Part shown: positions 1 to 64,000 of the stretch, piece after piece
Layout: every line of letters begins with the position of its first letter
Position numbering within the stretch: position 1 is the first letter of the stretch
IMG/VR virus record: IMGVR_UViG_3300037400_002732
Span: 96,001-160,000 of that record
Length of the DNA: 64,000 nt
Direction: 5' to 3' (one strand)
DNA from: a virus
Lineage: Duplodnaviria; Caudoviricetes
Notes under the pieces: generated by a model
Databases searched by the model: none
What the model was told of the DNA's origin: nothing
The model's input: the letters and a program-made list of their open reading frames with translations, nothing else
Position numbers and translations under genes: made by a program

Positions 1-5
1 CTGGC

Positions 6-644
6 ATGAAATGGAAGATGAAGCACCAGTACGACAGTCTTTCCGCTGGACACCATTCAGATGCGCCGAAGGACGACAACGGCGAGGACATTGCACCTCG
101 CGTCCGTACGCCGCACTTGTGCGCCCACTTGATTGCAGCTTTCCAAGGTATGATTGCATGCGCTGGATCTATCATGAAGGATGCTAGAACGGCAACACCG
201 CCTACACACGAGGAAGAAGCTCCGCAACCCACGCAAGAAAAGCACCCGGTCATCGGCAAGCAGCAGTCGGAAGAAAAATCTAATGAAATTATAAGTAATG
301 CGGCAGATCAAAACGAAGCCGAAAAGGCTCGACAAGAAGCCATGGATTCATTCAGTCAAGGTGAAGGCGTCAAGACCGAAGAAACCCAAGCGGCCCTAAA
401 CGCGCTCGCTGACAACCTTAATCCGGAGGCCCAGCCGACTGAAGATGAGGAAGTCGAGGATCCCGGCCTTGGACTTATCGGTAAGCGTGACGCGGAAGAA
501 AACGATCCAGTCAAGCAAAGTAGTCTGTTCGCTTACGACGACAACGCCGACAATCCTATCTTCGACATCCCTCTTGATGAGGAAGAACCAGAAGAAGAAG
601 TTGACGGCGACAACGTCATCGAGGAACCTATCGAACTGCCATAG
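6..644 (+). CDS. Hypothetical protein with acidic low-complexity C-terminus; probably truncated by the window start
   Basis: The frame is open to the window edge; E/D-rich tail; converges on the ORF ending at 646. Confidence 0.6.
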   Translation: MKWKMKHQYDSLSAGHHSDAPKDDNGEDIAPRVRTPHLCAHLIAAFQGMIACAGSIMKDARTATPPTHEEEAPQPTQEKHPVIGKQQSEEKSNEIISNAADQNEAEKARQEAMDSFSQGEGVKTEETQAALNALADNLNPEAQPTEDEEVEDPGLGLIGKRDAEENDPVKQSSLFAYDDNADNPIFDIPLDEEEPEEEVDGDNVIEEPIELP

Positions 645-645
645 G

Positions 646-1143
646 CTAGTTCCAGATGGGTTCCATCGTCGCTACGGTAATCTGGTCGGACGTATTGTTC
701 CACTTGTAATTGTTACCGATTAGCGTCATGAGTACATCGTAAATGACTGCACGAACAACACCGTTCTTCACTGACTGAAGGACGGTATTTAAGTACATCT
801 TGTCGCATTCCTCGCGACCATACTCATTGAATCCGGATTCCTCGTACAACGCAGCAAGAACGATAGTTGCCGCTGGATCCAGCTTGACTCCTATAAGTTT
901 CAGCACCTTCGCAACAATGTGTGGAAGCGGATAGGTCGCCGTAAAGCCCTTGTGAATCGTCACTCGGCTGCGGACACTGGTAAAGTCAATACTGGTGAGA
1001 TCTTCGGTATCGTCATCGACATCGCCATTCAACACGACAATCTCAGCAACAAAGTCCTTGGTCAAGACCAACTTTCCGTCCTTCTTGACGATGGCCTTAC
1101 GATTTTTTTCATCGACGACAATATTACGAATATACTGGGACAT
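646..1143 (-). CDS. Hypothetical protein
   Basis: ORF with GGTGA SD-like sequence before ATG 1143; downstream of the polymerase-like gene. Confidence 0.7.
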   Translation of the reverse strand: MSQYIRNIVVDEKNRKAIVKKDGKLVLTKDFVAEIVVLNGDVDDDTEDLTSIDFTSVRSRVTIHKGFTATYPLPHIVAKVLKLIGVKLDPAATIVLAALYEESGFNEYGREECDKMYLNTVLQSVKNGVVRAVIYDVLMTLIGNNYKWNNTSDQITVATMEPIWN

Positions 1144-1183
1144 AATCACTCACCTTTTACTTTAGAAATTAGTCTAAAGTAGT

Positions 1184-2794
1184 TTAGGCGGCGTTAAAGT
1201 CCACCGGTTGGCAACTACGCTCATCCAATTCGTTGATGAAGCACTGGTCTGGGTTCGACGGCAAGGCAGCTTCGTATTCGTACTCGTACTCGATATCGGT
1301 ATGGGTCGGAATATCTTGGTTGAGAAGTTCCTCGTCCATAATGTAGCGGACATATTCGGCACAGTCTGCCGGAACAATGATGGAGTCGTGGACGGTGCAG
1401 AAATGACAGCCGATTTCTTCGATAATGCGCGGGCAAACCTTGTCGAAGACAAAGCTGCTTTCGATCTTCTGCATTTCGTACGCCAACGCAGCATGGCAAG
1501 ATTCCTTCATCGCCCACATGCACTCGTAGAGATTGTGGAAGTACTTCTTCCAGCAACGCTGAACTGCGGCACGGACTGGCTCACGCTTCTCATTGAAGTA
1601 AAGCGGAGAGAACAAGAAGGAAAGCATTCCCTTCTTAGCCTCGTCACGAGTAAGCTTGCGATTTAGGATAACGTCTTCGCTACATTCCTTCTGGAAGAAC
1701 TCATAGATCTTTCCATCGGCCACCAAGTTACGGTAAAGGTCGAGTTCGGATTCCATGTTGTCAAGCATGGTTGACTTCATGGATTCGTGCTTCCAGATCG
1801 GACGGAAACGGATAAATGTATCGCGGTTCTCGGCAAGGTCATTACGGTAGAAGTCGATATAACGGCGGAACACGGCAATGATGAACGCTGCCTGGGAAGA
1901 CTTGATATCGACTTCGGCAACAGACTCTCCATCGCAACGCAAGGCAGCATGACGGATTTCCTTCTTCATGTTCGTTACGTTGGTATGAATGCGGCCATAC
2001 TTGTCGTGCTTTACATACAAGTCACCATTAGCTTCGTCGCAGAGACCATTGAAGCGTTCGATCTTGGCTCTTTCCATAGCCTCGTTGGACGGAGTCATCT
2101 GCTTATTGGCCACCATTTCCTTGAGGGTCTTGTCAGCAACAGACTGGTCAACGCTGAAGTGGCTCAACTCGTTATAGCAAATCGCCACGACCGGATCTTC
2201 CATGGAGATACGCTTGCGTTCCTCGAAGGACTTGGCAATGCGCTTGAGAACAATCGGAGACGTAATGGCGTACTTCATCATGGAGCCATGCACCACGACT
2301 TCGGTATTCTTGAGCTTCTTGTCGGCACGAGTCTGCAAGTAAGTGGCGTAGCTGTTCTGGTAAGGAGCGCAGAGCCAGAAAGCCTTGCACTTACCCTTAC
2401 GGTTGGCATCACCTTTGATATAGGTTTCGGAACGGCCAATAAAACCGTTCTTGACCAAGCAGTTAATGGCAGTAATGTACTGATCGCCCAGCATCTTGTG
2501 AAGAAGGACTGCAGAAAGGTGGCAAGTCCAATACTTACGCGGAATGACCGGATTGACAATCATGTTGGTGGAAAAATCACTACGGAGCTGGCTAACGACC
2601 ATGTAAAGGACGAGGGCCATTGTATCGACAAGGGTCTTGGATGTAGGCGAGTGTCCGTTAGTTGTCATAAATTCGTGACAAAACTGACTAAATGCCTTGC
2701 ACAACATGGAAGGAAGTTCGATCTTGAACTCTTTGGAGGACTTATTCCTCTTCATTTGCGAGTGTTGGTTTAAAGGTTCTACGTTCACATCCAT
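1184..2794 (-). CDS. Family-A/T7-RNAP-superfamily polymerase-like protein (TV-Pol-like) with N-terminal winged-HTH-like region and no exonuclease domain
   Basis: Motifs YGRIHT, motif A EVDIKSSQ, motif B RDEAKKGMLSFLF, MQKIES and motif C TVHDSIIV occur in the right order. Confidence 0.7.
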   Translation of the reverse strand: MDVNVEPLNQHSQMKRNKSSKEFKIELPSMLCKAFSQFCHEFMTTNGHSPTSKTLVDTMALVLYMVVSQLRSDFSTNMIVNPVIPRKYWTCHLSAVLLHKMLGDQYITAINCLVKNGFIGRSETYIKGDANRKGKCKAFWLCAPYQNSYATYLQTRADKKLKNTEVVVHGSMMKYAITSPIVLKRIAKSFEERKRISMEDPVVAICYNELSHFSVDQSVADKTLKEMVANKQMTPSNEAMERAKIERFNGLCDEANGDLYVKHDKYGRIHTNVTNMKKEIRHAALRCDGESVAEVDIKSSQAAFIIAVFRRYIDFYRNDLAENRDTFIRFRPIWKHESMKSTMLDNMESELDLYRNLVADGKIYEFFQKECSEDVILNRKLTRDEAKKGMLSFLFSPLYFNEKREPVRAAVQRCWKKYFHNLYECMWAMKESCHAALAYEMQKIESSFVFDKVCPRIIEEIGCHFCTVHDSIIVPADCAEYVRYIMDEELLNQDIPTHTDIEYEYEYEAALPSNPDQCFINELDERSCQPVDFNAA

Positions 2795-2911
2795 AAGGTA
2801 GTAAAACTTTCCCTAGTTGTCAATCTCCATTGCAGGATTTAATTAAGACGAACCAGCGGTGCTAGTCCGGTCTTATCGCTGAGTTTATGGTCTCAGTGAT
2901 AACAGTGTACA

Positions 2912-2940
2912 AAGTTAAACTAAATCAATTTGAATTGCAA
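2912..2940 (-). promoter_or_regulatory. Sigma70-type promoter for the polymerase-like gene
   Basis: TTGCAA-17 nt-TAACTT on the minus strand. Confidence 0.5.
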
Positions 2941-3151
2941 GCAAACTTAACCTCCGGTACATCCGACCATTTTAATGTTTCGGAAATCAATAGATAGGAT
3001 TACCACATTATGTAAACTAAAATCATTGAATGTAAAGAAGAAGTTTACACACCGGAAAACAAAGTACTGACACACAGCCGCCATAGCGGCCCCCATTTAA
3101 ATGTTTCGAGTTTTTATAATATATATATAGAGTAATTTGCAATTCAAATTG
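2926..3151. repeat. Structured AT-rich intergenic region, candidate replication origin
   Basis: Perfect 15-bp inverted repeat (2926-2940 / 3137-3151); 15/16 direct repeat CCATTT(T/A)AATGTTTCG (2967-2982, 3093-3108); GCCGC-CATA-GCGGC hairpin (3077-3090); TA-rich run (3111-3129). Confidence 0.55.
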
Positions 3152-3165
3152 TTTATGGCTATCTT
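3137..3165 (+). promoter_or_regulatory. Sigma70-type promoter for the uvsW operon
   Basis: TTGCAA-17 nt-TATCTT, 8 nt before ATG 3174. Confidence 0.55.
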
Positions 3166-3173
3166 AGCATATT

Positions 3174-3677
3174 ATGCCTTATAACTCTACCATAACAATC
3201 GAATTGCTGTCAATGTTCCGCTGGAAGGAAACTGGATGGAAGACTCCAGTCTCCCTCATTTCCCCGGACGTCACCATCAAAATTGCAGCACATGACTCTT
3301 GCTTGAACCACCGTTGGTCTGTTCAGCTCGACAATGCGGAAGTCAACCTTCATAGCGAACTCGCCGATGAGTCGCTGAAGGACACGCTCGTCGCTGTAGT
3401 CAAGTCCAGATTGACCAAGGACATGAAGATTATCCAGATTTTCGGTGATTCTATGCGCCGAGGTGCTACCAAGCGTCTCAAGGCTCAAGCGAATATTTTC
3501 AGCGAGACCAACTACCGTATCGACTTTTCCCATAAATATCGATTCATCGTTGTTCTCGAAGGAACTTCTTTGGATAAACTGGACGGCGTCTATCTGGTTC
3601 CGTCGTATCTTCCGGCTCCGAAAGACGGATACGACGAGGATTCGTTCTACAAGATGCTTTGCTACGAGAGAGTATAA
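3174..3677 (+). CDS. Hypothetical protein
   Basis: 167-aa ORF, TAATG-coupled to uvsW. Confidence 0.7.
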   Translation: MPYNSTITIELLSMFRWKETGWKTPVSLISPDVTIKIAAHDSCLNHRWSVQLDNAEVNLHSELADESLKDTLVAVVKSRLTKDMKIIQIFGDSMRRGATKRLKAQANIFSETNYRIDFSHKYRFIVVLEGTSLDKLDGVYLVPSYLPAPKDGYDEDSFYKMLCYERV

Positions 3678-5458
3678 TGCAACCCCAACAACAGTTAATA
3701 CAGCCTTCCGTCGTTCGGTTCGCTTATTACGATCCGGTACTGTGTGAAGTTCAGATTACTTCGCCAGATCCCAAGACTGTACACTTGATTAACAGTTTTA
3801 TAGCCGCTTCGATGACTTTCTATGACAAGCAGAAGTCGAGACAGTGGGAAGTCAAGGAAGGCTTCAAGACCGCCTTTGTCACATTTTACGACAAGTCTAC
3901 CCATTTACTACCGATCGGACTGATTCCTCGCGTGAGTCGTCTGGTTATTAGCCGTTTCAAATCCAAGATCGACTTGTCCAAGGAAATTAAGGACTTGTTC
4001 GTCGCGCCGTACGGAACTCTTACTTCCAGTGAAATCATCGGATTTGCCAATACGTTGAATTTGCATAACGCGAACACGAACAAGCCGATCGTTCCGTATG
4101 AACACCAGTACAAGCTGGCCGAACGTGCGTTGAACGGACGTAGGATTTCATTACTAGCTTGTACGAGTGCTGGCAAGTCGCTGGCCATGTGCATTATCGC
4201 GAGATACTTGATTTCTAGGGAAAAAAAGAAGTTACTAATCGTTGTTCCGTCCACTAACTTGGTGAAGCAGCTATTCACCGATTTTCAAGATGACTACGGT
4301 TGGGCGGACGCTCGCAAGTACTGTACGCTAATTTATTCCGATTCTGACGACAAGCTAACGAAATCCAAGAAGGAGCAGCTTGCGAAGTATGGTCTCGGCG
4401 AAGACAGTGTACTGAAGCAGATTACGATTTCGACTTGGCAGTCATTACAACGTAAGCCGGACAAGTTTTTTGAGTGCTTTACCGCCGTCATGGTGGATGA
4501 AGCGCATTCGACTCGTGGTGTCAAGCTGCGCGACATTTTGACCAAGTGTGTTAATGCCGCCGATTTCAAGATTGGCGTGTCCGGTACTTTGCCGGATGAC
4601 GGCATCGATGCTGGCTATATCGAAAGCCAGCTGGGCCGTAAGGAAGAAATTGTTCGTTTGAAGGAACTCGTGTCCAAGGGCGTTCTGACTCCAGTAACGG
4701 TCAATGCAATCTTGATCCCATATCCGCCGCAGCTACGCAAGATGATCTGCCGTCAGACTTACGACGATGAAGTCGCATTCTGTTCGGCCAATACTTCTCG
4801 TCGCGATATCATCAAGATTTTGATCGATAAGAACAAGATAAACACTTCGCAGAATACTGTTATCTTGTTCAAGAATATCGAGCCACTGGAAGTCATGCAC
4901 GATTACTTGAAGGTAAACTATCCGCAGTTCCAGTACCACATCATCAAGGGTGACGTGTCGGTAGATGACCGCGAAAATATCCGTAAGTCGATCGAGTATT
5001 CGACCGGGCACATTATATTGGCTACCTACGGATGCATGAAGCAAGGCGTGAACATCAAGTTACTACACAACCTGGTATTTGCCGAGCCAGCGAAATCGAT
5101 TTACATGGTCGTGCAGTCTATTGGTCGTGTCGTCCGTCCGCATAAGGACAAGAAGATGGCTTACGTCTATGACTTGGTCGATGACGCTTCGTACCAGTAT
5201 ATGTCTCGCTCTGGTTATCCGTGCTTGAAGACGAACTACATGATGAAGCACTACGACATCCGCCGTTCTTACTACGACGCTGACGAAATTCCGGTAAACG
5301 AGATTAACTTCAGCGGTCTCTATGAAGCGAAGATCGACGAGGAAGTCATTGCCGAGCGCAAGCGCAAGGCTGCAGAGAAGGCGAAGGCAAAGGCCGAGAA
5401 GGTACAGAAGGCTGCCACCAAGAACGTATTCAAGAATAAATTTTTCCGTAAGGGTTAA
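3677..5458 (+). CDS. uvsW: UvsW-like SF2 DNA helicase
   Basis: PYEHQ Q-motif, TSAGKS, VVPSTNLVKQ, STWQS, VDEAH, GVSGT, GVNIKLLHNLVFA, QSIGRVVR, VYDLVDD. Confidence 0.9.
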   Translation: MQPQQQLIQPSVVRFAYYDPVLCEVQITSPDPKTVHLINSFIAASMTFYDKQKSRQWEVKEGFKTAFVTFYDKSTHLLPIGLIPRVSRLVISRFKSKIDLSKEIKDLFVAPYGTLTSSEIIGFANTLNLHNANTNKPIVPYEHQYKLAERALNGRRISLLACTSAGKSLAMCIIARYLISREKKKLLIVVPSTNLVKQLFTDFQDDYGWADARKYCTLIYSDSDDKLTKSKKEQLAKYGLGEDSVLKQITISTWQSLQRKPDKFFECFTAVMVDEAHSTRGVKLRDILTKCVNAADFKIGVSGTLPDDGIDAGYIESQLGRKEEIVRLKELVSKGVLTPVTVNAILIPYPPQLRKMICRQTYDDEVAFCSANTSRRDIIKILIDKNKINTSQNTVILFKNIEPLEVMHDYLKVNYPQFQYHIIKGDVSVDDRENIRKSIEYSTGHIILATYGCMKQGVNIKLLHNLVFAEPAKSIYMVVQSIGRVVRPHKDKKMAYVYDLVDDASYQYMSRSGYPCLKTNYMMKHYDIRRSYYDADEIPVNEINFSGLYEAKIDEEVIAERKRKAAEKAKAKAEKVQKAATKNVFKNKFFRKG

Positions 5459-5460
5459 TC

Positions 5461-6819
5461 ATGGAATTCAAGTCAAAGCCCATCAAGAGTTATCCGTACA
5501 AGAATAAGCGTCTCATGGTCATAGACTGGGCTTCGCTTTCATATCATCAGCTCTGGTCACTAAAGACGAAGAGCAGTAAGCAACGTCTCGGTAGCGTACT
5601 TGCCGAAGACGAGGAACTGACCGTATGGCGTTCAAAGATGTTCAACCGCATGCTCGACTATATCCGTCTGTTCAATCCACTGGATATCATTCTTTGCCTC
5701 GAAGGAAAGAATGCATGGCGCAAGAAGGTAGTGAAGGACTACTATTCCGAACATGCCATGATCTATTGGGATAACGTTGGTTACTATGTATCGAGCGACA
5801 ATTACACGTATCGCGTGACGAAGGAAGGCGAAGACTGCTATTCAGTCAACAAGGTTTCGCCTCGTGTGAAGGCCGTGTATGAATCGCTAGACCATCGTGT
5901 CCTTGGTAAGCTGCCGCAGAAGACTCAAGACATGCTGTGGAGTATCAAGACATCGACAGGTACTCCGGTTCTTCCGTCATACAAGGGAAAGCGTGGCGCG
6001 TCCGCGTGGGACTTCAGCGTTGACAAGAAGTACTGGCAAGCGTATAAGGATGAATACGCGATGGAACTGGCACCGTTCTTCCGTGCCAAGGCGGTCAAGT
6101 GCGCCATTGCCGAAGGTGACGATATGATCTACGCTGCTGTCAAGAAGTATAGCGGCGATTACGACGACATCATTGTCATCACACGCGACTCCGATATGTC
6201 CCAGATCGATGTGAAGAATGTAAAGATTTTTAATCATACGTCGGAAAGCTTTGTTGAATGTGCTTATCCTCAGCAGTACCTTGCTGCCAAGGTTCTGTCT
6301 GGCGATACCTCTGACAATATTCGAGGCATGGCCTTCGTGGACGCCAAGACTGGCGAGCTGAAACCCAGCAAAGCTAACGGCGTGTCCGAAAAAGAAGCCG
6401 TGATTCTTATGGAAAGCTGTCCAAATATTTACGCAGTTGCTGAGGCTAACGGCTGGGCAGACCAGTACATGAGAAACCGTACACTGATCGATCTCTCGAT
6501 GGTGCCGCGTAACGTGTCCGAGGCTATCGACGAGGTGCTGGAACAGCCAGCCCCAGCGTTGAACATCGACTGGGCTAAGGCTGCTGAATGGGGATTCCCA
6601 GAGGCCAAGGTTGACTATTATCGTACGCTGCAGCAGTTCGGATTCTTCTCGGTGATTGCTCGTGAAAATGCCAACCCAGAGTCGTTCCAAGGCGAAATGT
6701 TGGCTCGCAAGGAAACCGAAATGAACCAGAAGTTGCTTGACGAAACGTCCAGTGGGCTCGATTTTGGCGAAATTGGCGAAGAGTTCGGCATGCCCACATT
6801 TGACTTATCGGACATTTAA
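5461..6819 (+). CDS. rnh: T4 RNase H-like 5'-3' exonuclease (FEN family)
   Basis: VIDW, WRK...YKGKR, EGDDMI, TRDSDMSQ, LSGDTSDNIRG, RNRTLIDL. Confidence 0.85.
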   Translation: MEFKSKPIKSYPYKNKRLMVIDWASLSYHQLWSLKTKSSKQRLGSVLAEDEELTVWRSKMFNRMLDYIRLFNPLDIILCLEGKNAWRKKVVKDYYSEHAMIYWDNVGYYVSSDNYTYRVTKEGEDCYSVNKVSPRVKAVYESLDHRVLGKLPQKTQDMLWSIKTSTGTPVLPSYKGKRGASAWDFSVDKKYWQAYKDEYAMELAPFFRAKAVKCAIAEGDDMIYAAVKKYSGDYDDIIVITRDSDMSQIDVKNVKIFNHTSESFVECAYPQQYLAAKVLSGDTSDNIRGMAFVDAKTGELKPSKANGVSEKEAVILMESCPNIYAVAEANGWADQYMRNRTLIDLSMVPRNVSEAIDEVLEQPAPALNIDWAKAAEWGFPEAKVDYYRTLQQFGFFSVIARENANPESFQGEMLARKETEMNQKLLDETSSGLDFGEIGEEFGMPTFDLSDI

Positions 6820-6828
6820 AGTTATATT
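6800..6828 (+). promoter_or_regulatory. Sigma70-type promoter
   Basis: TTGACT-17 nt-TATATT, followed by GAGG SD and ATG 6845. Confidence 0.6.
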
Positions 6829-6844
6829 TTGATTGAGGTTTTAT

Positions 6845-8500
6845 ATGGCTAATACACCAGTAAACGCATTGGTTCGTGTAGCAACGAACAATGATCTTGA
6901 TTTTATTGAATGGCTCGAATACCATATCGCGCTAGGTTTTGACCGTATCTACGCATACGACACCGGGAACCATGGCTGGCTTCCGGAAGTATGCCGCAAG
7001 CATTCTGACCACGTCACTCTTATTCCGATGGCGAATAACGACTGGCGTAAGAAAAGTAACATCATCAAGGCGTATGTCGAGCAGACGTTGGATCCGTCTT
7101 GGGCTGTCTGTCTCGAAGACGATGAATATATCTGGATGGATTTGAGTATTTCTCGTTCCATCAGTAATTTCATCAACAAGCATGTCGCGCCACGCTCACT
7201 CGCCATGTCGGTCTATGTGAAGTACATGTCTTCTGAAAAGCCGATGAAGAGCCGTGTCGGTACTTTGATCGATTGCTTCCAGCATGTTCGACCGAATCCG
7301 CAAGGTTTTGTTCATCCGTGCCAGTTGACTCCGAACTGCTCCTTTACGTTCTTCTACGTGCCGAACAACAAGTGTGTGCCGATGAGCGGCCCACTTACTC
7401 CGAATGTGAAAATGTGGATCGACTCTCGTGGCAGTGCATTGGATAACGCCCACTTGGGCGCATATCTGGCTTCACAGAGCTACAACCCAGACATCTATCC
7501 GATTCGCGGTTACAAGTACGCTCTGAAGTCTGGCATTGAAATGGGCATGGCTCCAGGAACCAAGCCGGTCGGCTATACCGTCCGCGACAACCACATGCTT
7601 GAAGCAAGGGCTGCGTTGCTCCGCATTCCGGTCAACGAATCTACCGAGACTATTTATGCCAAGTCTGAAGTTCTTGTCGAAAAGCCAGCACTTCCGAAGC
7701 GCGAATTGTCTCCGGAAGAAACTGCCGAACTCGAATTGCCAGTACCGCTCGGCAAGATTGACACCTTTATCCTTTACGGCTATCCGCTTGAACATGTTAT
7801 CGAGTTTGCCGCGAAGAATGGTTACGAAGATACCGAAGAACATCGCGAGGTTATCAAGCGTGTCTATCGTCGCGAATGCTCCATGATTATTGAATCTACT
7901 CCGGTGTACAAGCGTCTGTACGAAATGGACAAGCTTGGCCATTACACTGACGACATGGTGTGCGCCGAATTGAAGATTAGCTATCCGGCGTTGGTGAAGA
8001 TGCGTAAGTGCATGTCGGTTCTCGACATCGAAGAACACGAACAGAAGAAGGAAGAAACCGCTAAGGTCGAAGCTGCCGCAGATGCCGAACAGGCAAAGGC
8101 TGTGGTTGATGCTGACAATATCGCCGACCTCACTTCCCAGTTCGATGCGACCGTGAATGCAAATCCGGTGTCTAAGGAAGACGAAAAACGTTTTGAAATC
8201 AAGGTCGAGGAACGTCGTGCGAAGCGTCGTGAACAGAACAAGAGGTCGAAGGAACGCAAGAAGGCTAACGAAGAAGCCAAGAAGCAGTCCCTCGAAGTAA
8301 CCACGCCGACTGAACCGATTGACACTAAGGTTGAAATGAAACCGAAGGCTGAGGCACTGAAGGTTATTGAGGAACCGAAGGATGAAGAGCCAGCTCAGAC
8401 TGCTGCTACTGCCGCAGAAGAGGAAGTGGTTCTCGATCTTGGTGCTGACGACTTGCTTTCCAATACTGACCTTTCTGCGTTTGGGAATGTAGATGCATAA
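6845..8500 (+). CDS. Glycosyltransferase-like protein (GT92/GT2_4-type N-terminus) with HTH-like segment and charged tail
   Basis: EWLEYHIALGFDRIYAYD and W..CLEDDEYI match the GT92-like pattern; TDDMVCAELKISYPALVKMRK resembles an HTH. Confidence 0.65.
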   Translation: MANTPVNALVRVATNNDLDFIEWLEYHIALGFDRIYAYDTGNHGWLPEVCRKHSDHVTLIPMANNDWRKKSNIIKAYVEQTLDPSWAVCLEDDEYIWMDLSISRSISNFINKHVAPRSLAMSVYVKYMSSEKPMKSRVGTLIDCFQHVRPNPQGFVHPCQLTPNCSFTFFYVPNNKCVPMSGPLTPNVKMWIDSRGSALDNAHLGAYLASQSYNPDIYPIRGYKYALKSGIEMGMAPGTKPVGYTVRDNHMLEARAALLRIPVNESTETIYAKSEVLVEKPALPKRELSPEETAELELPVPLGKIDTFILYGYPLEHVIEFAAKNGYEDTEEHREVIKRVYRRECSMIIESTPVYKRLYEMDKLGHYTDDMVCAELKISYPALVKMRKCMSVLDIEEHEQKKEETAKVEAAADAEQAKAVVDADNIADLTSQFDATVNANPVSKEDEKRFEIKVEERRAKRREQNKRSKERKKANEEAKKQSLEVTTPTEPIDTKVEMKPKAEALKVIEEPKDEEPAQTAATAAEEEVVLDLGADDLLSNTDLSAFGNVDA

Positions 8501-10754: not shown

Positions 10755-10773
10755 GTTATGCCTCGGTTGCATG

Positions 10774-10785
10774 AACTGATAAACT
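10774..10785 (+). promoter_or_regulatory. Late promoter motif AACTGATAAACT
   Basis: Perfect copy 23 nt before ATG 10809, in the loop of a 14-bp stem (10760-10802). Confidence 0.75.
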
Positions 10786-10808
10786 AGGCGTGTAACCGAG
10801 GCTTTCTC

Positions 10809-22036: not shown

Positions 22037-22235
22037 GCAGCAAATGTTCAACGGCAAGCCTTGTTTCAAGGTAGATGCCGATGATTTCATGTACATAGCC
22101 GCATGCGCGACTATGGGTAAGCGTTTGTTGTCCAAGAACATCAAGAACGATGAACTCAGGGAGTACTATGTGAACAGCAGAGTGCCTGAGTTTGCTGTCG
22201 ATTACGATGGTGTAATTTTAACGTGGTATAGGTAA
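22026..22235 (+). CDS. Small hypothetical protein
   Basis: ATG 22026 overlaps the upstream gene end; 69 aa; stop 3 nt before the portal gene. Confidence 0.6.
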   Translation: MKDKQQMFNGKPCFKVDADDFMYIAACATMGKRLLSKNIKNDELREYYVNSRVPEFAVDYDGVILTWYR

Positions 22236-22238
22236 GAT

Positions 22239-23939
22239 ATGCTAATTAAAAAGCAACAAGAAAATGACAACATGGCGACTCGATTGCTGAGCCACGTTAG
22301 GGATTACGGCTTGGCTAACGAACGCGGTGCCATATTCGACCGAATATTCAACCGTGGTGACGTTATTCGTCAAATCAGGGCGTCTCGAAATGTTGTTGGT
22401 CAAGGCATCAATCAGATGCTGTCACCGGACGGATCCGCGATTGACGGATTCAGTATGTATATGCCAGCCCTTGGCATAAGCGGCGCGAACAAGATTGATC
22501 CGGACAAGATTCAGAACGCGATTGCCGAGAACCAAGCGCAGCTTTACTGGAAGAAGAACCAAGAACGCGCTCGCAAGTACGATACGGTCGCTTCTCGTTC
22601 CGAAGTGAACGAGTCACTAATCCAGATCTGTAACGAAGGAGTCTACAAGGACGACGTGGATGAAATCTGCTCGCTTGACATCGACCACGACGCCGCTATC
22701 GGCGATCCGGTGCGAAAGAAGCTGGGAAAGATTTTCCGTCAAGACGTTCTACGACGCATCATGCACTTCCACCAAGACGGCTGGGAATACATGAAATACT
22801 TGCTGACTCGCGGACGTATCTTCTTCGAAGTTATCTACGATCCCAAAACCGGAAAGATCGAAGGCGTGAACATGTTGCCCGAAGAGCACATGATTATCGT
22901 TGTCCAAGATAACTTGATTATCGGCTATCGTCAGATGCTTACTGGTGCGCTTGCGTCGCAGACGAACGGCAAGAATTATATCGACTTCTCTCCGAACCAA
23001 ATCTTGTATGCGTCGCTTGGCATGACTGGCCCAGGTGGCGTAAATGACCCTCGTTCTATTCTTGAACCAGCAATGAAGCCGTATAACCAACTGAATACGA
23101 TTGAGGATAGCGTGGTTATGTACCGTGTTCTCTGGGGTTCAGAAAAGCTCATCTTGAAGGTGGACGTGTCTGGTATGACCAAGGCGACTGCCGAAAAGTT
23201 CATGAAAGACCAAGCTAAGATGTTTAGCCGCCGTCTTGACTATAACTCGATGACTGGCGAAGTGACTAACTTCGGTACTTCTCCTGGATTGACTGAGCAC
23301 TTTGTTATTGGTGTCGGCAATGGCCGTACTGGTTCTGGTATTGAACGTATGGCTGGCGGTGAACAGCTTGGAAATATTGATGACTTGAAGTTCTTCAAGC
23401 GAAACCTTGTCAACTCCTTGATGGTTCCGCCGGGACGCATCACTGCACTCGCTGGCGACTCTAATAATTACTCACAAGGTAAGATCGGCGAAGTCACTCA
23501 AGCCGAAGTGTCTTTCGCTCGTCTAGTTCAACGCTATCAGACTCCGTTCGAGACGATTCTTATTCGTCTGTTCGTGATGGTGCTGAATACTGACAAGACT
23601 ATCGACGACTCGATCAAGCTCCAAGAGTTCTATACTGTACGCTTCAAGAAGTCCAATGGTTTCCAGAACTTCATTGACTCGGAAGTATGGACGACGAAGC
23701 TTGCGGTCTTCGACTCGATGATGAAACACGTTTCGTCCAAGGAAAACCCGAACGGCGCGTTGTCCAAGCAAGCTGCACTTCGTTGGGGCCTTCGCCTCAA
23801 TGATGAACAGTACAATCTCAACAAGGCATGGTGCCTTGAAGAAAAGAAGGAAGAATCTGGTGAAGCTACTGGCGATGACGGTGGCGATTCCGGTGCTGGT
23901 GGCGACATGGGTGCTGGCGGCGGTATGCCGGGTATGTAA
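22239..23939 (+). CDS. gp20: Portal protein (T4 gp20 family)
   Basis: SILEPAMKPYNQLNTIEDSVVMYR, KVDVSGM, GEQLGNIDDLKFFKRNLVNSLMVP, EVTQAEVSFARLV. Confidence 0.92.
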   Translation: MLIKKQQENDNMATRLLSHVRDYGLANERGAIFDRIFNRGDVIRQIRASRNVVGQGINQMLSPDGSAIDGFSMYMPALGISGANKIDPDKIQNAIAENQAQLYWKKNQERARKYDTVASRSEVNESLIQICNEGVYKDDVDEICSLDIDHDAAIGDPVRKKLGKIFRQDVLRRIMHFHQDGWEYMKYLLTRGRIFFEVIYDPKTGKIEGVNMLPEEHMIIVVQDNLIIGYRQMLTGALASQTNGKNYIDFSPNQILYASLGMTGPGGVNDPRSILEPAMKPYNQLNTIEDSVVMYRVLWGSEKLILKVDVSGMTKATAEKFMKDQAKMFSRRLDYNSMTGEVTNFGTSPGLTEHFVIGVGNGRTGSGIERMAGGEQLGNIDDLKFFKRNLVNSLMVPPGRITALAGDSNNYSQGKIGEVTQAEVSFARLVQRYQTPFETILIRLFVMVLNTDKTIDDSIKLQEFYTVRFKKSNGFQNFIDSEVWTTKLAVFDSMMKHVSSKENPNGALSKQAALRWGLRLNDEQYNLNKAWCLEEKKEESGEATGDDGGDSGAGGDMGAGGGMPGM

Positions 23940-23946
23940 TGGAATT

Positions 23947-23970
23947 TGGCGGTCAATGACCGCCATTTTT
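23947..23970 (+). terminator. Terminator after the portal gene
   Basis: TGGCGGTC-AAT-GACCGCCA followed by TTTTT. Confidence 0.75.
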
Positions 23971-24104
23971 CATTTCAATGTAGGTTTTTGACCATTTTTT
24001 CACGGCGTTTCGCGATATCCCTAAACAATATATCAAGAAACGCCTATCAGAGCATGTACCACGATGGTTATGCCGAGAAGGCAATAACTACGAAGGTACA
24101 ACTT

Positions 24105-25598
24105 ATGCAGACTCTTCAGAAAAAGAACCTCTCGAATAAGTGGCGCGCCATTCTTGAATCCAACCTTGGTCGTCCTATTCGTACTCGCGCTGAAGCCAGC
24201 GTGATCGCTACCTTGCTCGAAAACCAGAACAAGGTAAACCGTGGTGCTATGCTTGAATCCGCCAACGTTTCCGCTGACGTGGCTCAGTATCAGCAGTACG
24301 CTCTTCCGATGATTCGTCGTCAGTTCCCAGAACTTCTCGCGATGAACACGGTTACTGTCATCCCGACAACCACTCCGCAGGGCATCTACTTTGCTCTCCG
24401 TTACCTCTACGAAAATGAACCGCTCAAGACCACTGCCTTCCGTCAGGGTCAGAAGCAAGAAATCGGCTACGACCTCGTTGCTGATCACACTGGCTTCGCT
24501 GGCACGTTCAATCCGTGGACGACTGGCATGGGCGAAATGCTTTCCAACTACATGGAAGGTACTGGTGTTAGCGGTGCTTCTGCTAACGGCAACTCTTTCG
24601 ATCCGAATCAGCCGGGCCTCCTTTACAACAACTTCGGTGGTTCCTACCTCGCTGGTGATGACCAGTACGGTGCCTACAGCTTCAACATCAAGAAAGCCTC
24701 TATCAAGGTGATCTCTGGTGCTATCCGCGTTGGTACACGTGCTATCAAGTCTCACTACACCATCGAACTCCAGCAAGACATGGCTGCCGCTCACGGCCAG
24801 GATGTCGAAGCTCTCCTCCTCGAAGGTCTTCAGTTTGAAATTCAACAGAACATCGACCGTGAAATTCTTCAGGCCATGGTTCTCGTTGCTCAGACTCCGG
24901 CTCTCGGTGGTGAACCTGCTATCCAGATGGATCTTGCCGATCCGAACCGTCTCAATGCTGGTATGGGCCGCTGGGCTGCAGAACGCATCGCTGGTGGTAT
25001 CGTAAACACCATCATCGCTGTTTCTCGTAAGATCGCCCTCACGACTCGTATGGGTTGCGGTAACTTCGCAATCGTCTCTCCGGACATTGCCGCTGCTGTC
25101 GCTACCTTGAACAACGGTATCTACACGCCGACTTACCTCCAGACCGATGCTGCTGTGCAGCCGAACGGTGGTGTTGCTGATGCTGGTTCTCTTTTGAACG
25201 GCAACATCAAGCTCTACCAAGACATCTACGCTAACGCTTCTTATGCCCTCTTGGGTTACAAGGGCCCGCGTCAAGGTGAGTCTGGTATCATCATGATGCC
25301 TTATATCCCTTATATCTTCTGCAAGACCGCTGGTCAGGAAGATGGTAGCCCGCGCTTGATCGTGAAGTCTCGTTACGCCATTGTGGCTAACCTTCTCGGT
25401 GCTGGTCAGTTCTACCGCGTTATCCACTTCTCCAACGTTAACAGCGTAATCACTGGTATCGATCTGGAAAACAACCCGTGGCAGTCTAACGGCTCCATCG
25501 GTGGTGCTTCTCTCCAGGCTGGCCTCTCTTACGAAACTGTGCCGAACGGTGTGGTTAACGTTCCGGGTGGCTTGAGCTACGAAGACAACAACTGGTAA
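24105..25598 (+). CDS. gp23: Major capsid protein (T4 gp23 family)
   Basis: KWRAILE, LLENQ, PMIRRQFPELLA, YTIELQQDMAAAHGQDVE, IDREI, GNFAIVSP, GYKG, PYIP, KSRYA; extreme codon bias; GAAGGT SD. Confidence 0.95.
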   Translation: MQTLQKKNLSNKWRAILESNLGRPIRTRAEASVIATLLENQNKVNRGAMLESANVSADVAQYQQYALPMIRRQFPELLAMNTVTVIPTTTPQGIYFALRYLYENEPLKTTAFRQGQKQEIGYDLVADHTGFAGTFNPWTTGMGEMLSNYMEGTGVSGASANGNSFDPNQPGLLYNNFGGSYLAGDDQYGAYSFNIKKASIKVISGAIRVGTRAIKSHYTIELQQDMAAAHGQDVEALLLEGLQFEIQQNIDREILQAMVLVAQTPALGGEPAIQMDLADPNRLNAGMGRWAAERIAGGIVNTIIAVSRKIALTTRMGCGNFAIVSPDIAAAVATLNNGIYTPTYLQTDAAVQPNGGVADAGSLLNGNIKLYQDIYANASYALLGYKGPRQGESGIIMMPYIPYIFCKTAGQEDGSPRLIVKSRYAIVANLLGAGQFYRVIHFSNVNSVITGIDLENNPWQSNGSIGGASLQAGLSYETVPNGVVNVPGGLSYEDNNW

Positions 25599-25629
25599 TC
25601 TTTACCAGTCGTCTTAGAACGCCAAATTT

Positions 25630-25660
25630 AAAGGCAGTGGAGCAATCCGCTGCCTTTTTT
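25630..25660 (+). terminator. Terminator after the capsid gene
   Basis: AAAGGCAGTGGA-GCAA-TCCGCTGCCTTT followed by a T run. Confidence 0.85.
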
Positions 25661-25718
25661 GCGTTTGTTTTGGCCAAATAATCTGCATCGCGGTTTTGTT
25701 GATAAAATGTTAACATAA

Positions 25719-25730
25719 ACCTTATAAACT
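25719..25730 (+). promoter_or_regulatory. Late promoter variant ACCTTATAAACT
   Basis: 27 nt before ATG 25758. Confidence 0.6.
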
Positions 25731-25757
25731 ATTGCTTAACCGAGCGGTAGTTAATTG

Positions 25758-25934
25758 ATGAAAACCAAGGACACTAAACAGTTATTGACTGGAATTTTGA
25801 ACAACGACACGGCAACCGTCAAACGGATTGTCAATGCGTATTTCGAGTCTTGTTTTACTGCTGAGATAGATAAGGCGTCCAAGGCCGTCATGGAGTCTAT
25901 CGGCAAAGAGGGGAAGGCTTTGTATGGCAACTAA
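25758..25934 (+). CDS. Small prohead core protein, gp67-like (not in the ORF track)
   Basis: 58 aa MKTKDTKQLLTGILNNDTATVKRIVNAYFESCFTAEIDKASKAVMESIGKEGKALYGN; overlaps the protease start. Confidence 0.6.
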   Translation: MKTKDTKQLLTGILNNDTATVKRIVNAYFESCFTAEIDKASKAVMESIGKEGKALYGN

Positions 25935-26688
25935 CAACATTTACGGTGACGCTATATTTGAGGGTTCCAGTGCTGCCTTGGTCGATCGCAAGGACATTTT
26001 TGGTAATCTTGTCAAGCGTCTGATCATTGAAGGTACGGCTATCCGCTGTGATGTTCCTGGCATTAACAACCGTGCATATCCGAAACGCATTATTGAACGA
26101 GAAATGAACCGTCTTATCAAGGACTTCGTTGCTCGTGGCCGCTTGGCGGCGTCTTTGAATCACCCTCGTCTTGGTGCCGACGGCACGGCGAAGGACTATC
26201 CGATTTTTGAAATGGACTTGGACAGCATCTGCGCCTTGATCGAAGACCTTCACATGGAAGGCGACGTTCTGAAGGTTCGCATGGTGGTTCTGGAAGAGAC
26301 CAAGGCTGGTCATCAGCTTGCCGCCCTTATTCGTGGCGGTTATCATCCCGGCTTCTCTCTGCGTGGTGCTGGTAGCACCATCAACATGGGCGAGCATGAG
26401 GAAATTGCTGACGACTATACGATGATTACTATCGACGTTGTTGGTAACCCATCTTTCGGCCAAGAAGCAATCTTCACCGCTCGTCAAGAATCTGCAGAAG
26501 CTAACGGCGCGAAGGCTTTGACCGAAGCTGCGACAGGACCACGACCGCTGGTCGAGTCTGTAACGGACGTAATGGCTCGCTATGGCAAGGAAATTGAACG
26601 CACTTATACCAATTTCGTGCTAGGCCCAGGACGTTATGACAAAAACGGACTAATTTCTGCATTGCGAGGCTTCAATTCATGCAATTAA
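25924..26688 (+). CDS. gp21: Prohead protease (T4 gp21 family)
   Basis: LIIEG, NNRAYP, LNHP, GFSLRGAGS, IDVVGNPS. Confidence 0.9.
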   Translation: MATNNIYGDAIFEGSSAALVDRKDIFGNLVKRLIIEGTAIRCDVPGINNRAYPKRIIEREMNRLIKDFVARGRLAASLNHPRLGADGTAKDYPIFEMDLDSICALIEDLHMEGDVLKVRMVVLEETKAGHQLAALIRGGYHPGFSLRGAGSTINMGEHEEIADDYTMITIDVVGNPSFGQEAIFTARQESAEANGAKALTEAATGPRPLVESVTDVMARYGKEIERTYTNFVLGPGRYDKNGLISALRGFNSCN

Positions 26689-27722: not shown

Positions 27723-28418
27723 ATGCAACAAACAGACTATTCAACCATTGCTCCACGCGGACAAGCTCCACAGCCGCAGTACCCGCCACAGAATCCGGGT
27801 TATGCTCCGCAGCAAGGATATCCGCAACAAGGATACCCACAGCAAGGTTATCCGCAGCAAGGATATCCGCAACAAGGCTATCCTCAGCAAGCCGCATATC
27901 CACAGCAAGGTTACTATCAGCAACCTCAGCAGCCAGCCCCTCAGTATGCACAGCCAGCTCCGCAGCAGCCGCCTCCGAATGGCAACTATTTCATTCCGCA
28001 GTCTGCGATGAACGGCATGGAATATTCCGAAGAATTCCGTCGTGCTTATGAAACTAACAAGGCGGCGTTCGACGAAATAAACAAGAAGATCAAGGCTGGC
28101 GTAAACGAAAGCGAAGCTGTAAAGCGTGTCAAGGAAATGACCGCCTACAAGACCAAGGTCGATGCCACATTGAAGGAAATGGGCTGCGCGACCAACATTA
28201 GTCAAGTGCTGGCGATTATTGAAGACCTCTGTCTGTCCCTTGAGCATCCGGATCAGTGGATTCCGGCGGCTCGTTCCAAATATGTCGAACCGATGCGTAA
28301 GCAGTCTGCGCCGATTGTCGATGTACTGAGAAAGACTGCAGCAACAATTAAGAAGCTGTCCGTTCCGGCAGCTGGGGCCCAACAAGCCCAGCCAGCCGCG
28401 CCAGCAGCTGAAGGATAA
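27723..28418 (+). CDS. Late protein with a PQQGY-repeat N-terminus
   Basis: Q/P/Y/G low-complexity region followed by a helical domain; GAGG SD. Confidence 0.75.
27807..27914 (+). repeat. 15-bp coding tandem repeat (PQQGY x5, [11 protein letters not shown])
   Basis: CCRCARCAAGGHTAY units that differ at synonymous positions. Confidence 0.9.
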
Positions 28419-34284: not shown

Positions 34285-34323
34285 TAGAGATTCACTTAAC
34301 CAAGGAAAAGTCAAAAGAAAACG

Positions 34324-34351
34324 AAAAGACCGCTGGAAGGCGGTCTTTTTT
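34324..34351. terminator. Bidirectional terminator
   Basis: AAAAGACCGCT-GGAA-GGCGGTCTTTTTT between convergent genes. Confidence 0.85.
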
Positions 34352-34370
34352 GTCATGAATGAAATCTATT

Positions 34371-49924: not shown

Positions 49925-49951
49925 AGTTTCTGCATAACATTGGAACATGCG

Positions 49952-54487: not shown

Positions 54488-54540
54488 TAAACATAAAATG
54501 AAGTAATTTAATTAACGAAACAACAAAAAGGAATACATAT

Positions 54541-55077
54541 ATGCAGATTTCTCGTCGCAAGGTTATTGAGCTTGGTCTTACTTTGATGCAAGCTGAAAGC
54601 CTTTTCAAGCTTCCGATTTCCGGTAGGTTCTATTACGCTTGTGTGAAGAACCGCGAATTGGGCCGTGAAGAATACAAGCTCTCCATGGAGGCTAATCCGT
54701 ATCCTCAGCAGTTCAACGAATATGAAACCAAGCGTGTCGCCATTCTCAACGAAGTCGGAGAATCGGTTAAGCCGGGATTTTCCAAGATGGATGATCGCGA
54801 ACGTGACGCAATCGTCAATTCTCGTGATGAAAAGGTCATGCCGACTGAAAAGCGTGAAATGCTTCTAAAGCGTTTGAATGACCTCTCCACAGAATATAAA
54901 GACCTTCTCCAAGAGGTTGATGCGGTGAATGTTCGCCGTAAGGAATTCTTGGACGAAGTTGATGATTATCCGATCAAGACGGTCAAGTTGTCTGATATTC
55001 CGGAAGTCGTGAAAGGAAACGGTTTCGATATCTTCCTTTCTCTCGATCCGATGATTATCGACGACGCCGAGGCATAA
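54541..55077 (+). CDS. Small helical protein, possible fibre chaperone
   Basis: AAGGA SD; lies between fibre genes; TAATAAAC upstream. Confidence 0.6.
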   Translation: MQISRRKVIELGLTLMQAESLFKLPISGRFYYACVKNRELGREEYKLSMEANPYPQQFNEYETKRVAILNEVGESVKPGFSKMDDRERDAIVNSRDEKVMPTEKREMLLKRLNDLSTEYKDLLQEVDAVNVRRKEFLDEVDDYPIKTVKLSDIPEVVKGNGFDIFLSLDPMIIDDAEA

Positions 55078-56207: not shown

Positions 56208-56213
56208 ATGATC

Positions 56214-56239
56214 AATCCGGCGGAAACGTCGGATTTTTC
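56214..56239 (+). terminator. Rho-independent terminator
   Basis: AATCCGGCG-GAAA-CGTCGGATT followed by TTT. Confidence 0.8.
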
Positions 56240-56249
56240 AGTCCCCATG

Positions 56250-56261
56250 AACTGATAAACT
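56250..56261 (+). promoter_or_regulatory. Late promoter motif AACTGATAAACT
   Basis: Perfect copy 25 nt before ATG 56287. Confidence 0.75.
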
Positions 56262-56286
56262 ATGAACAAACTGATTTTGGACGCTT

Positions 56287-61981: not shown

Positions 61982-61983
61982 TC

Positions 61984-62013
61984 AAGAACCTTGCCAATAG
62001 GCAAGGTTTTCTT
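61984..62013 (+). terminator. Rho-independent terminator
   Basis: AACCTTGCC-AATA-GGCAAGGTT followed by TTCTT. Confidence 0.8.
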
Positions 62014-62029
62014 CTGTGTCCTCGATACG

Positions 62030-62041
62030 AACTGATAAACT
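62030..62041 (+). promoter_or_regulatory. Late promoter motif AACTGATAAACT
   Basis: Perfect copy 26 nt before ATG 62068. Confidence 0.75.
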
Positions 62042-62067
62042 GCGTATAGCTTTTGAAACTATGCGAC

Positions 62068-64000
62068 ATGGACGAACGCGAACTGCCGACTAACAAAATA
62101 CACGACTATGTGACATGGCCTACTACGACGCCGATTTTTGAAGATGGCCGTGGTGGTCTTGCGTTCCCTGAACAGAATAACAGTAATTGTCATTTTGATG
62201 AAAATGGGGATTTGGTAACTGACCGTAAACTGGTATCAGCTAACGTGTCGGCTGGCGTTGTTTATACAGACGGTAATAATCCGATTACTTCGTCGGATAT
62301 TGTCTATCAGCCTAGTTATTCGGTTGAAATTAGACCGGATGTACTAAGCTTTAAGGTAAAATCATTTACGTATAGCAACGGTTCTGGTACGATTACACTG
62401 GTCGATAGCTTGACTAGCCAGCTGGTGCCGTACTTGAATACGTCAGCAACGTTTTTTGCGGCAACTCCAGATACATTGGAATGTACTAAATTGGTGTCGG
62501 CTGATATTGCTGTAAATCCAGTTGAAGGCGATACAATCGAGTTTACTACTTCCGACTTGGTCGTTGACGGCGTAGATGTGCCGTTCGACATGACTACAGG
62601 CATATCGTTCGACTTGCTGATTTCGCTGAAGGATATTAGCTCGGATACTATATATGCATACTTGGCTAATCAAGACGATTCCTCGCAGAATGGCGTTTAT
62701 GCTTATACGTCTGGCCACGTAACAAGGGTTGCATCTAGCCCGATTGATCCGGACATCGATGCGAATCAGTTGTTGTCTGATCCTACTGTAAATGACAATG
62801 TCGAATGTTGTCACCATTACCGCAAGTCATACTCGCATAAAGAAGTTCATGACCGTGTCTACAACTTGGTCGGAAAGGTTACTGGTTTTGGTGTCAAGTC
62901 GATGTCATTCTCGAATTGTGATGGCGGCTTGATTGATTGGTTTACTTCGATAGGAAAGGTGAATTTAGGTAATGGGCATTCAAGTGTGTTCGTTAACGGA
63001 TTTGGTCTAGGTCAGATGTACAAGGCCGCATTGTCTAGCGAAGCCGAATATCCTGTACTTCCTAAAGATGGTTTTGATGAGAATGATGGCGTACTACATC
63101 CATGGCTTCAATGGGCATACGGTACACGATATGACGCCAAGACTAGTACGGATATTTGCGCATTGCCTCGTGACTGGCCGTTTACTCATTTAACGGCGAC
63201 CGAGGAACAGCCTATTTTCAACAAGCTTACTGATACGAATAACATAACTCTGGTAAGAAAGTGTTCTGCCGGTGTTGGCAATTTGGAAATGGATCGTATC
63301 GAGTATGATGACGAGACCGGAGATCCCAAAATCGATCCGGATACTGGTGAACCTATTACTAGCAAGGTATATTACAACAAGCACCACATTGTGCTGTATC
63401 CAGACTATACCGCAATCACTAACAAGGAAGGTTATTCCGACGGAAGTGTAGTGGTTAAACCGTTGTTTGTCCATCTGCCAGCGCCGATCGATACAAAGGA
63501 CGGCGAAACTATCGATATTACGTTCTCTATACAGAATGTCGATCCTAATGCATTCGGAGATACTAGTACATCGGAGAACGCGAAGAAAGCGTTGAGCGGT
63601 TATTATGCGGCCATGTCTCGTCCGCGTGTTTATGTGATGGGTGGCGTACAAAAGTTCAGCAATAAGAAGCTACCGATTACGGTCGATCTGGTTAATGGTG
63701 AATATGTCGCTACGTCTACGAAGCTCGCGTATGCAAACGACGGAATTACGCCTCTTGCTGTTGTTGGCGAGGAAGGAACCGCCATACGAGCTAATGTTAT
63801 CGTAATGAACAGAAACTCGACTGGCGAGCGTCACTCATTTACTATGTATGGGTGGTTGACTAAGAACAGTGTTGAAGATGGCGGAGCTACCATAAAGTTC
63901 GATACATCCGATGGGAAGTATTTCCCGTATGACAACGTCAGCGGCCCAGATAGAAGTGCGCTGGAGTTTGCTATATGCGGAATGGCGTACCTGGAGGCTG
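62068..64000 (+). CDS. Large putative virion protein, running off the window end (not in the ORF track)
   Basis: Manually translated from MDERELPTNK with no stop seen; contains the NQDDSSQNGVY fibre-type module. Confidence 0.75.
   Translation, partial: MDERELPTNKIHDYVTWPTTTPIFEDGRGGLAFPEQNNSNCHFDENGDLVTDRKLVSANVSAGVVYTDGNNPITSSDIVYQPSYSVEIRPDVLSFKVKSFTYSNGSGTITLVDSLTSQLVPYLNTSATFFAATPDTLECTKLVSADIAVNPVEGDTIEFTTSDLVVDGVDVPFDMTTGISFDLLISLKDISSDTIYAYLANQDDSSQNGVYAYTSGHVTRVASSPIDPDIDANQLLSDPTVNDNVECCHHYRKSYSHKEVHDRVYNLVGKVTGFGVKSMSFSNCDGGLIDWFTSIGKVNLGNGHSSVFVNGFGLGQMYKAALSSEAEYPVLPKDGFDENDGVLHPWLQWAYGTRYDAKTSTDICALPRDWPFTHLTATEEQPIFNKLTDTNNITLVRKCSAGVGNLEMDRIEYDDETGDPKIDPDTGEPITSKVYYNKHHIVLYPDYTAITNKEGYSDGSVVVKPLFVHLPAPIDTKDGETIDITFSIQNVDPNAFGDTSTSENAKKALSGYYAAMSRPRVYVMGGVQKFSNKKLPITVDLVNGEYVATSTKLAYANDGITPLAVVGEEGTAIRANVIVMNRNSTGERHSFTMYGWLTKNSVEDGGATIKFDTSDGKYFPYDNVSGPDRSALEFAICGMAYLEA

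Follow-up and report, generated by a model that had tools for sequence, protein, structure and literature searches.

The stretch of DNA considered here, called the window, comprises 64,000 nucleotides (bases 96001-160000) of the 174,807-bp IMG/VR viral contig IMGVR_UViG_3300037400_002732; the whole record, with a CheckV completeness of 46%, is designated G000. The record derives from an uncultured giant phage of the cattle rumen; its proteins, which include a gp23-like capsid, a portal, gp46/47-like nucleases and a helicase, mark it as very divergent and T4-like. The DNA is marked by a deep deficit of the tetramer CAGG and its complement CCTG, of which about 85% have been lost across both strands through silent changes. 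An earlier note, made from the letters of the window alone, had described this purge and ascribed it to evasion of a sequence-specific DNA-targeting system. The features of the window that bear on the deficit are listed below, with a centred dot marking a codon boundary.

1..64000, both strands: CAGG/CCTG (56 sites) and CCCG/CGGG (85 sites) are both depleted, with codon-shuffle ratios of 0.20 and 0.30, respectively.
1891..8093, both strands taken: six CAGG/CCTG sites (1891, 2833, 5071, 5957, 7554, 8090), the sole ones in the first 10.8 kb.
22157..26630: densest cluster of surviving sites (16 of 56), in the portal-capsid region; it includes a 5-kb bin with 11 sites.
23946..25598, plus strand: major capsid gene, encoding the gp23-like major head protein, with 7 surviving sites, six of them CAG·G (24378, 24444, 24798, 24870, 25335, 25515).
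27807..27915, plus strand: PQQGY repeat, in which 6 of 6 Gln-Gly junctions are CAA·GG, CAG being the usual codon for the first Gln of a unit.

Depletion of CAGG/CCTG

Tetramers were merged by strand into 136 words, and their counts were compared with three nulls: base composition, a second-order Markov model, and a shuffle of synonymous codons within genes that preserves both protein sequence and codon usage. The window contains 56 CAGG plus CCTG, compared with 446.6 expected from composition and 313 under the Markov model, in good agreement with the 50-55 against 450-500 that had been estimated by eye; the estimate of about 6 sites in the first 10.8 kb was exact. CAGG/CCTG ranks lowest among the 136 tetramers, and it is also lowest under the Markov and codon-shuffle nulls. 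In the whole record there are 180 sites, compared with 1228 (composition) and 878 (Markov) expected, and the deficit is even across 5-kb bins. Coding DNA of G000 has 167 sites where the codon shuffle predicts 842 (ratio 0.20, z = -34); on the sense strand, CAGG occurs 87 times versus 464 expected, and CCTG 80 times versus 379.

The codon choices behind the deficit are those that the earlier note had described. Where the next base is A, C or T, 74-83% of Gln codons are CAG, and where it is G just 7% are; Leu after a codon ending in C is TTG 480 times and CTG 14 times; the PQQGY junctions follow the same rule. About half of the surviving sites had been placed within CCWGG, and the actual count is 26 of 56 for the window and 88 of 180 for the whole record.

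Related phages and phylogenetic distribution

Megablast of a phage database returned no near relative of G000, and the best capsid match in that database, from a protein search, has approximately 31% identity and belongs to the T4-like capsids. IMG/VR, on the other hand, contains 43 loci related to G000. Sequencing runs in which the window occurs all stem from bovine gut metagenomes, ten studies in total, and contigs from three other cattle studies represent strains that are approximately 98-99% identical. Three large relatives were used for comparison; codon-shuffle ratios are given for CAGG/CCTG and CCCG/CGGG, in that order.

G001: 348 kb, 95% capsid identity and ~74% nucleotide identity to G000, collinear with it; 0.24 and 0.37.
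G002: 355 kb, 84% capsid identity; 0.31 and 0.61.
G003 (locus L015): 308 kb, 82% capsid identity; about 1.0 and about 1.0.

In a tree of capsid proteins, every depleted locus (CAGG/CCTG ratio 0.13-0.57) falls into one clade of rumen jumbo phages, which has two subclades. L015/G003 is nested within this clade, yet its CAGG/CCTG ratio is 0.88, and from its position in the tree it is read as a probable secondary relaxation of the depletion. Loci with a capsid identity of 76% or less have ratios of 0.87-1.2. The depletion is thus lineage-specific, with one clade low, G003 reverted and distant relatives at approximately 1. The depleted clade consists of abundant phages of ~350 kb that are found in at least ten cattle-gut studies.

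The capsid gene, which had been credited with about 6 sites and has 7, is set apart from the rest of the genome. Its six CAG·G sites are conserved among close relatives, and two of them are conserved clade-wide; survivors of the 22157..26630 cluster that lie outside the capsid gene are mostly not common to relatives. Of the 10 Gln codons that precede G in the capsid gene, 6 are CAG, compared with 0-2 of 6-13 in other large genes. As CAG·G is kept in the most highly expressed gene, codon preference there appears to outweigh site avoidance.

Pressure on double-stranded DNA

In G000, CAGG/CCTG is low in all six phase-by-strand combinations (0.06-0.44). The fourth base is decisive: CAGA, CAGC and CAGT are at 1.0-1.3, and CCTA and CCTC, split by the reading frame as CCT·A and CCT·C, do not fall below expectation. 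Intergenic DNA is affected as well, with 13 sites in G000 compared with 38.5 expected (control words, 35-67) and 44 CAGG plus CCTG in G001 compared with 167 expected. Context-conditional codon ratios, for which each genome serves as its own control, have the following values in G000 and G001:

CCT·G: 0.34
CAG·G: 0.09-0.16
nCA·GG: 0.20-0.23
nCC·TG: 0.08-0.14
nnC·AGG: 0.27-0.31
nnC·CTG: 0.09-0.13

In the related phage G003, these six ratios are 1.0-1.4. Because both strands, all codon phases and non-coding DNA are depleted, the effect is one on double-stranded DNA rather than on codons or mRNA, as the earlier note had argued from the loss of both orientations in coding strands; the pressure acts through synonymous choices, and mRNA-level causes are excluded on the same grounds.

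Extent of the avoided word

The second most depleted tetramer in G000 is CCCG/CGGG (codon-shuffle ratio 0.30), and over 33 related loci it co-varies with CAGG/CCTG (r = 0.89). Together, the two words read CCYG/CRGG; the odds that they form a single motif are put at about even, because GGG/CCC runs are generally scarce and this shortage accounts for part of the CCCG deficit.

The single informative flank is the base that precedes CAGG: G is strongly disfavoured and far more depleted than A or T, and C is the least depleted and is enriched among survivors, which bears out the suggestion that the preceding base matters (DCAGG). GCAGGH (DCCTGC on the other strand) is nearly gone, with 5, 11 and 8 copies in the three depleted genomes compared with 550 in G003. 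Relative to G003, the twelve D-CAGG-N contexts all have densities of 0.00-0.23 in G000 and G001 (0.04-0.23 for those other than GCAGGH), and C-CAGG-N contexts have 0.2-0.5. The deficit in G000 is therefore not reducible to a few longer restriction-modification (RM) sites but has a hard core within a soft shell.

The sparing of CCWGG, which had been attributed to overlapping C5 methylation, is real, but this cause is indistinguishable from a preference regarding the preceding base. CCGGG is relatively spared in G000, where C precedes 40% of CGGG survivors compared with 18% of all NCGG; as CCSGG is spared too, sparing follows a preceding C generally (CCNGG) and not CCWGG alone. In G002, moreover, CCWGG is the most depleted context (0.06), with GCAGG at 0.11 and TCAGG at 0.67.

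Other avoided words

Several other words are avoided in the same genomes. GGWCC occurs once in the window and twice in 175 kb, compared with about 292 expected. At or near zero in G000 are GTCGAC, CGGCCG, CTCGAG, GTATAC, AGGCCT, CCGCGG, CGCGCG and GCACGC/GCGTGC, together with CCTNAGG, CCTN5AGG and CACN4GTG; overall, a dozen hexamer palindromes are missing. GACN3GTC, an FsuI-type site, is not avoided. Across relatives, the ratio ranges from 0.00 to 0.65 for GGWCC and from 0.2 to 1.25 for GATC; CATG is at 0.03 (33 versus 1388 expected) and CCWGG at 0.06 (38 versus 666 expected) in G002 alone, and distant relatives (L028-L033, L036, L037, L039, L041, L042) have zero GATC in up to 21 kb. Each lineage thus has its own avoidance set, and such broad multi-enzyme avoidance is the profile of phages living among many restriction systems.

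Methylases and nucleases of the phages

A search of the phage genomes for methylases and nucleases found methylases in G001, G002 and G003 but none shared by the depleted genomes. The G000 fragment (46% complete) yielded no methylase of the C5, N4/N6 or D12 type, and G001-G003 yielded none of the N4, N6 or D12 type. G001 has two DNMT3-like C5 methylases, one of which is part of the following cluster.

L059:2660-5917 (G001 182,660-185,917): a 430-aa DNMT3-like C5 methyltransferase, a translationally coupled 335-aa AAA_21/AAA_15 ATPase, and then a 288-aa protein of no assigned family.

From its gene content, this cluster may be a phage-borne defence or restriction-like module. Homologues of the G001 methylases and of the coupled ATPase were not found in G000, G002 or G003 (G000 being 46% and G003 81% complete), and the methylases of G002 differ in type from those of G001. 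In G003, a C5 DNA methyltransferase (L045:1474-3474) is interrupted by an intein with N- and C-terminal splicing motifs; the Pfam matches of the G002 methylase at 289,717-292,008 are split as in G003, probably also by an intein. Forty open reading frames (ORFs), most of them unannotated, are common to G001 and G002 and missing from G003; a scan of 13 of them brought up neither a nuclease nor a methylase. At these levels of completeness of G000 and G003, no methylase or nuclease was found that is common to the depleted phages and missing from the undepleted sister.

Candidate hosts

When one genome per species was searched with the phage TnpB, matches of 85% identity appeared in a ruminal Fibrobacter metagenome-assembled genome (MAG) and a ruminal Prevotella MAG. 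The flanks of these matches are 92-97% identical to G001, so the matches are phage contigs binned with bacteria, and chromosomal insertion sequences are ruled out. Fibrobacter MAG_346 and Prevotella MAG_415 (GTDB) each contain several pieces of the clade (L104-L106, L141, L163-L165, L174, L175, L189), recognised by 92-97% identity to G001 or by a matching k-mer signature; a long phage-like contig is also present in another Fibrobacterota genome (G151:C67). Phage contigs in public MAGs are a contamination issue and possibly a host hint.

Neither candidate chromosome shares the depletion, which would speak against a mutational bias common to phage and host if either is the host: the clean chromosome of the Fibrobacter MAG (380 kb sampled) contains 2337 CAGG plus CCTG compared with 2602 expected, and that of the Prevotella MAG (144 kb sampled) 1314 compared with 905. 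Tetranucleotide similarity is higher for Fibrobacter (r = 0.72) than for Prevotella (0.48-0.53), a weak and not decisive hint. The Fib_succ_major domain (PF09603), typical of surface proteins of Fibrobacter and Bacteroidota, is present in phage ORFs (G001:273701-274093, G002:256237-257993) and hints at a host in the Fibrobacteres-Chlorobi-Bacteroidetes (FCB) group.

Twenty kilobases of the window were compared with 296 Fibrobacterota genomes in a CRISPR-type search, and no spacer-like array was found; the matches were further binned phage contigs and a shared terminator.

34322-34352 of the window: intrinsic terminator, a GACCGC-loop-GCGGTC hairpin with a T run behind it; identical over 28 nt in G145:C76 (Fibrobacterota) and near-identical in six others.

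As a host marker this terminator is too weak: its 25-nt form was located in one of 296 genomes of Fibrobacterota and in none of 401 of Bacteroidota. An Rfam scan of the window from 33 to 39 kb gave no match.

Nature of the agent

The best reading of the deficit is evasion of a sequence-specific DNA-targeting system, namely a restriction system of the host whose site is short and asymmetric, to which a probability of about 0.5 is assigned. The original proposal thus stands in part: the double-stranded, synonymous and lineage-specific character of the depletion and the undepleted candidate hosts argue for it, but no responsible system, whether of the host or of the phage, was found, and the target, given as CAGG/CCTG, is broader and layered, with CCCG/CGGG declining in parallel and DCCTGC nearly eliminated. 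Under this reading, the clade of rumen jumbo T4-like phages would have been under long-standing purifying selection on double-stranded DNA against CCTG/CAGG, with CCCG/CGGG probably within the same target (CCYG/CRGG) and with selection strongest where G precedes CAGG and weakest where C does. As the agent we infer one or more sequence-specific nucleases, presumably host-encoded, the likeliest kind being an orthodox Type II (IIS-like) RM system conserved in the host lineage. The probability of escape would drop multiplicatively with the number of sites, each site costing a fraction of a percent, such that fitness would climb smoothly as sites are lost and the purge would proceed over long rather than short times. 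Several hundred sites remain, which implies a small risk per site; the purge would consequently be deep yet incomplete, and codon preference in the capsid gene could override it.

Avoidance of sites by phages is mostly directed against orthodox Type II systems and rarely against Type III, IIG or I systems (Rusinov et al., 2018; PMC6286503). The present case resembles the avoidance seen in lytic double-stranded DNA phages in its silent changes, its effect on both strands, the differences between related phages and the many other Type II sites avoided; it differs in that the word is of 4 nt, non-palindromic and probably degenerate and in that the depletion, though deep (0.13-0.3), falls short of near-total (PMC6286503). 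The phenomenon is therefore known, whereas the target, softly depleted and matched to no described enzyme, is unusual.

Type IIS enzymes with asymmetric sites of 4-5 nt include MnlI (CCTC), AciI (CCGC), Sth132I (CCCG) and FauI (CCCGC), and BspMI/BfuAI read ACCTGC. They are alike in their short, one-sided targets and in keeping the nuclease apart from the methylases. The CCCG half of the putative motif is matched by Sth132I and FauI, and ACCTGC lies within DCCTGC. For enzymes that require two sites (EcoRII on T3/T7 DNA; Type III), phage DNA with sparse sites is resistant and a lower site density is rewarded, and such density reduction fits a purge that stops at ~1 site per kb. Type III systems, which the earlier note had listed as candidates, differ in one respect: in G000, G001 and G002 the orientations of adjacent survivors match random shuffles, with no bias and no avoidance of inverted (head-to-head) pairs, so escape through strand asymmetry is not used. 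Another listed candidate, a phage nuclease that spares its own genome by absence of sites, is unlikely because ~1 site per kb is left and no nuclease or methylase gene is shared. Very-short-patch repair raises CAGG/CCTG rather than lowering it and was rejected, and avoidance of a CRISPR protospacer-adjacent motif seems implausible at such a depth of depletion.

Several points weigh against a host restriction system. A classic Type II enzyme would not tolerate the ~1 site per kb that remains; to our knowledge, no enzyme reads CCTG or CCYG as such; and the literature on CAGG/CCTG avoidance, a CAGG methylation motif and Fibrobacter methylomes yielded nothing usable and no such enzyme. Avoidance of CAGG/CCTG is steadier across the clade than that of GGWCC, GATC or CATG, which fits a phage-carried cause too, and the two undepleted MAGs are candidate hosts only. 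Finally, selection on the plain tetramer appears weak at short range. G001 was compared with MAG-binned strains ~3.7% apart (32.9 kb, 1227 differences, unpolarised) under a random-difference null that reproduces control words; 30 new CAGG/CCTG sites were counted compared with 41 expected (~0.73), so the plain tetramer may be under weak per-site selection, or its avoidance may be relaxing in these strains.

The same comparison gave 2 new GGWCC sites versus 11.9 expected (0.17), 2 new DCCTGC sites versus 8.9 expected (0.22), and 11 new sites of the twelve absent hexamers versus 23.5 expected; DCCTGC is thus under far stronger selection than the plain tetramer. Soft selection on the tetramer beside hard selection on GGWCC and DCCTGC provides a usable model of the way in which the cost of each site influences how complete a purge becomes.

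Alternative explanations

A system of an undescribed kind that, as a nuclease, nickase or deaminase, recognises CCNG-type words of four letters (here CCYG, with a preference for CCTGC), with a low probability of a hit per site and either conserved across a rumen host lineage or phage-carried, is an unlikely but credible cause. Also unlikely is a composite or relic, in which several enzymes over time recognised longer sites with a CCTG core (DCCTGC, CCWGG, CCTNAGG and others) and only the longer sites are strongly selected today. The near loss of GCAGGH/DCCTGC and its rarity among new sites between close strains fit this explanation, as do the make-up of the G002 deficit (mostly GCAGG and CCWGG, with TCAGG much less affected), the absence of CCTNAGG and CCTN5AGG, and the weak short-range selection on the plain tetramer. 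However, all twelve D-CAGG-N contexts are low in G000 and G001, no flank other than the preceding base is informative, it would take eight or more separate hexamer specificities, and CCCG/CGGG drops in parallel.

The cause might also be carried by the phages, as a nuclease or RM-like module of the clade that reads CCYG/CRGG and serves host DNA degradation or rival exclusion, few sites being kept in the phage genome because self-protection is imperfect. Such a module could explain a trait that is clade-wide, steadier than other avoidances and cleanly reversed only in G003, and relatives do have C5 methyltransferases, one of them coupled to an ATPase in G001; it is nevertheless doubtful, since the G000 fragment yielded no methylase, the G001 genes lack homologues in the other three genomes, the probably intein-bearing methylase of G002 has a like-split, intein-bearing counterpart in the undepleted G003 and hence does not track depletion, neither a nuclease nor a methylase turned up among the scanned ORFs common to G001 and G002, and the phage DNA itself retains ~1 site per kb. 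Least likely, and quite improbable, is context-specific mutation, in which the cytosine of CCYG is methylated or enzymatically deaminated and CCTG becomes CTTG and CAGG becomes CAAG, like vertebrate CpG. The main replacements are indeed those that C-to-T change would yield: no tetramer is more over-represented than CAAG/CTTG (1.5-fold), the missing CTG after C goes almost wholly to TTG, and depletion is deepest (0.06-0.13) in phases where the transition is silent; the apparently weak selection per site also fits. Yet depletion is 3- to 4-fold where C-to-T or G-to-A is non-synonymous (CCT·G, 0.34; nCA·GG, 0.23; nnC·AGG, 0.27), other silent changes are used there (e.g., nCT·GG, which rises to 73%), the CAAG/CTTG excess is also present in the undepleted Fibrobacter MAG, and no methylase is common to the depleted genomes.

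Site avoidance is the footprint of a defence that is not directly visible in uncultured systems, and the footprint here is CCYG/CRGG with a hard DCCTGC core. Identification of the agent would extend the restriction repertoire by a specificity that is very short and asymmetric, provide a host marker for these phages, and help to explain the strong transformation barriers of rumen fibre degraders.

Further observations

An RtcB RNA ligase and a glutamine-dependent NAD synthetase-like gene of G001 (L050:16902-18110, L066:933-2882) are also present in G002, and RtcB in G000; the two were not found in G003 (81% complete). Over-represented words are present in G000 as well: GCTGG/CCAGC is 1.8-fold and CCAG/CTGG 1.4-fold over the codon shuffle, which exceeds what replacement of CAGG explains and might reflect a Chi-like or other favoured word.

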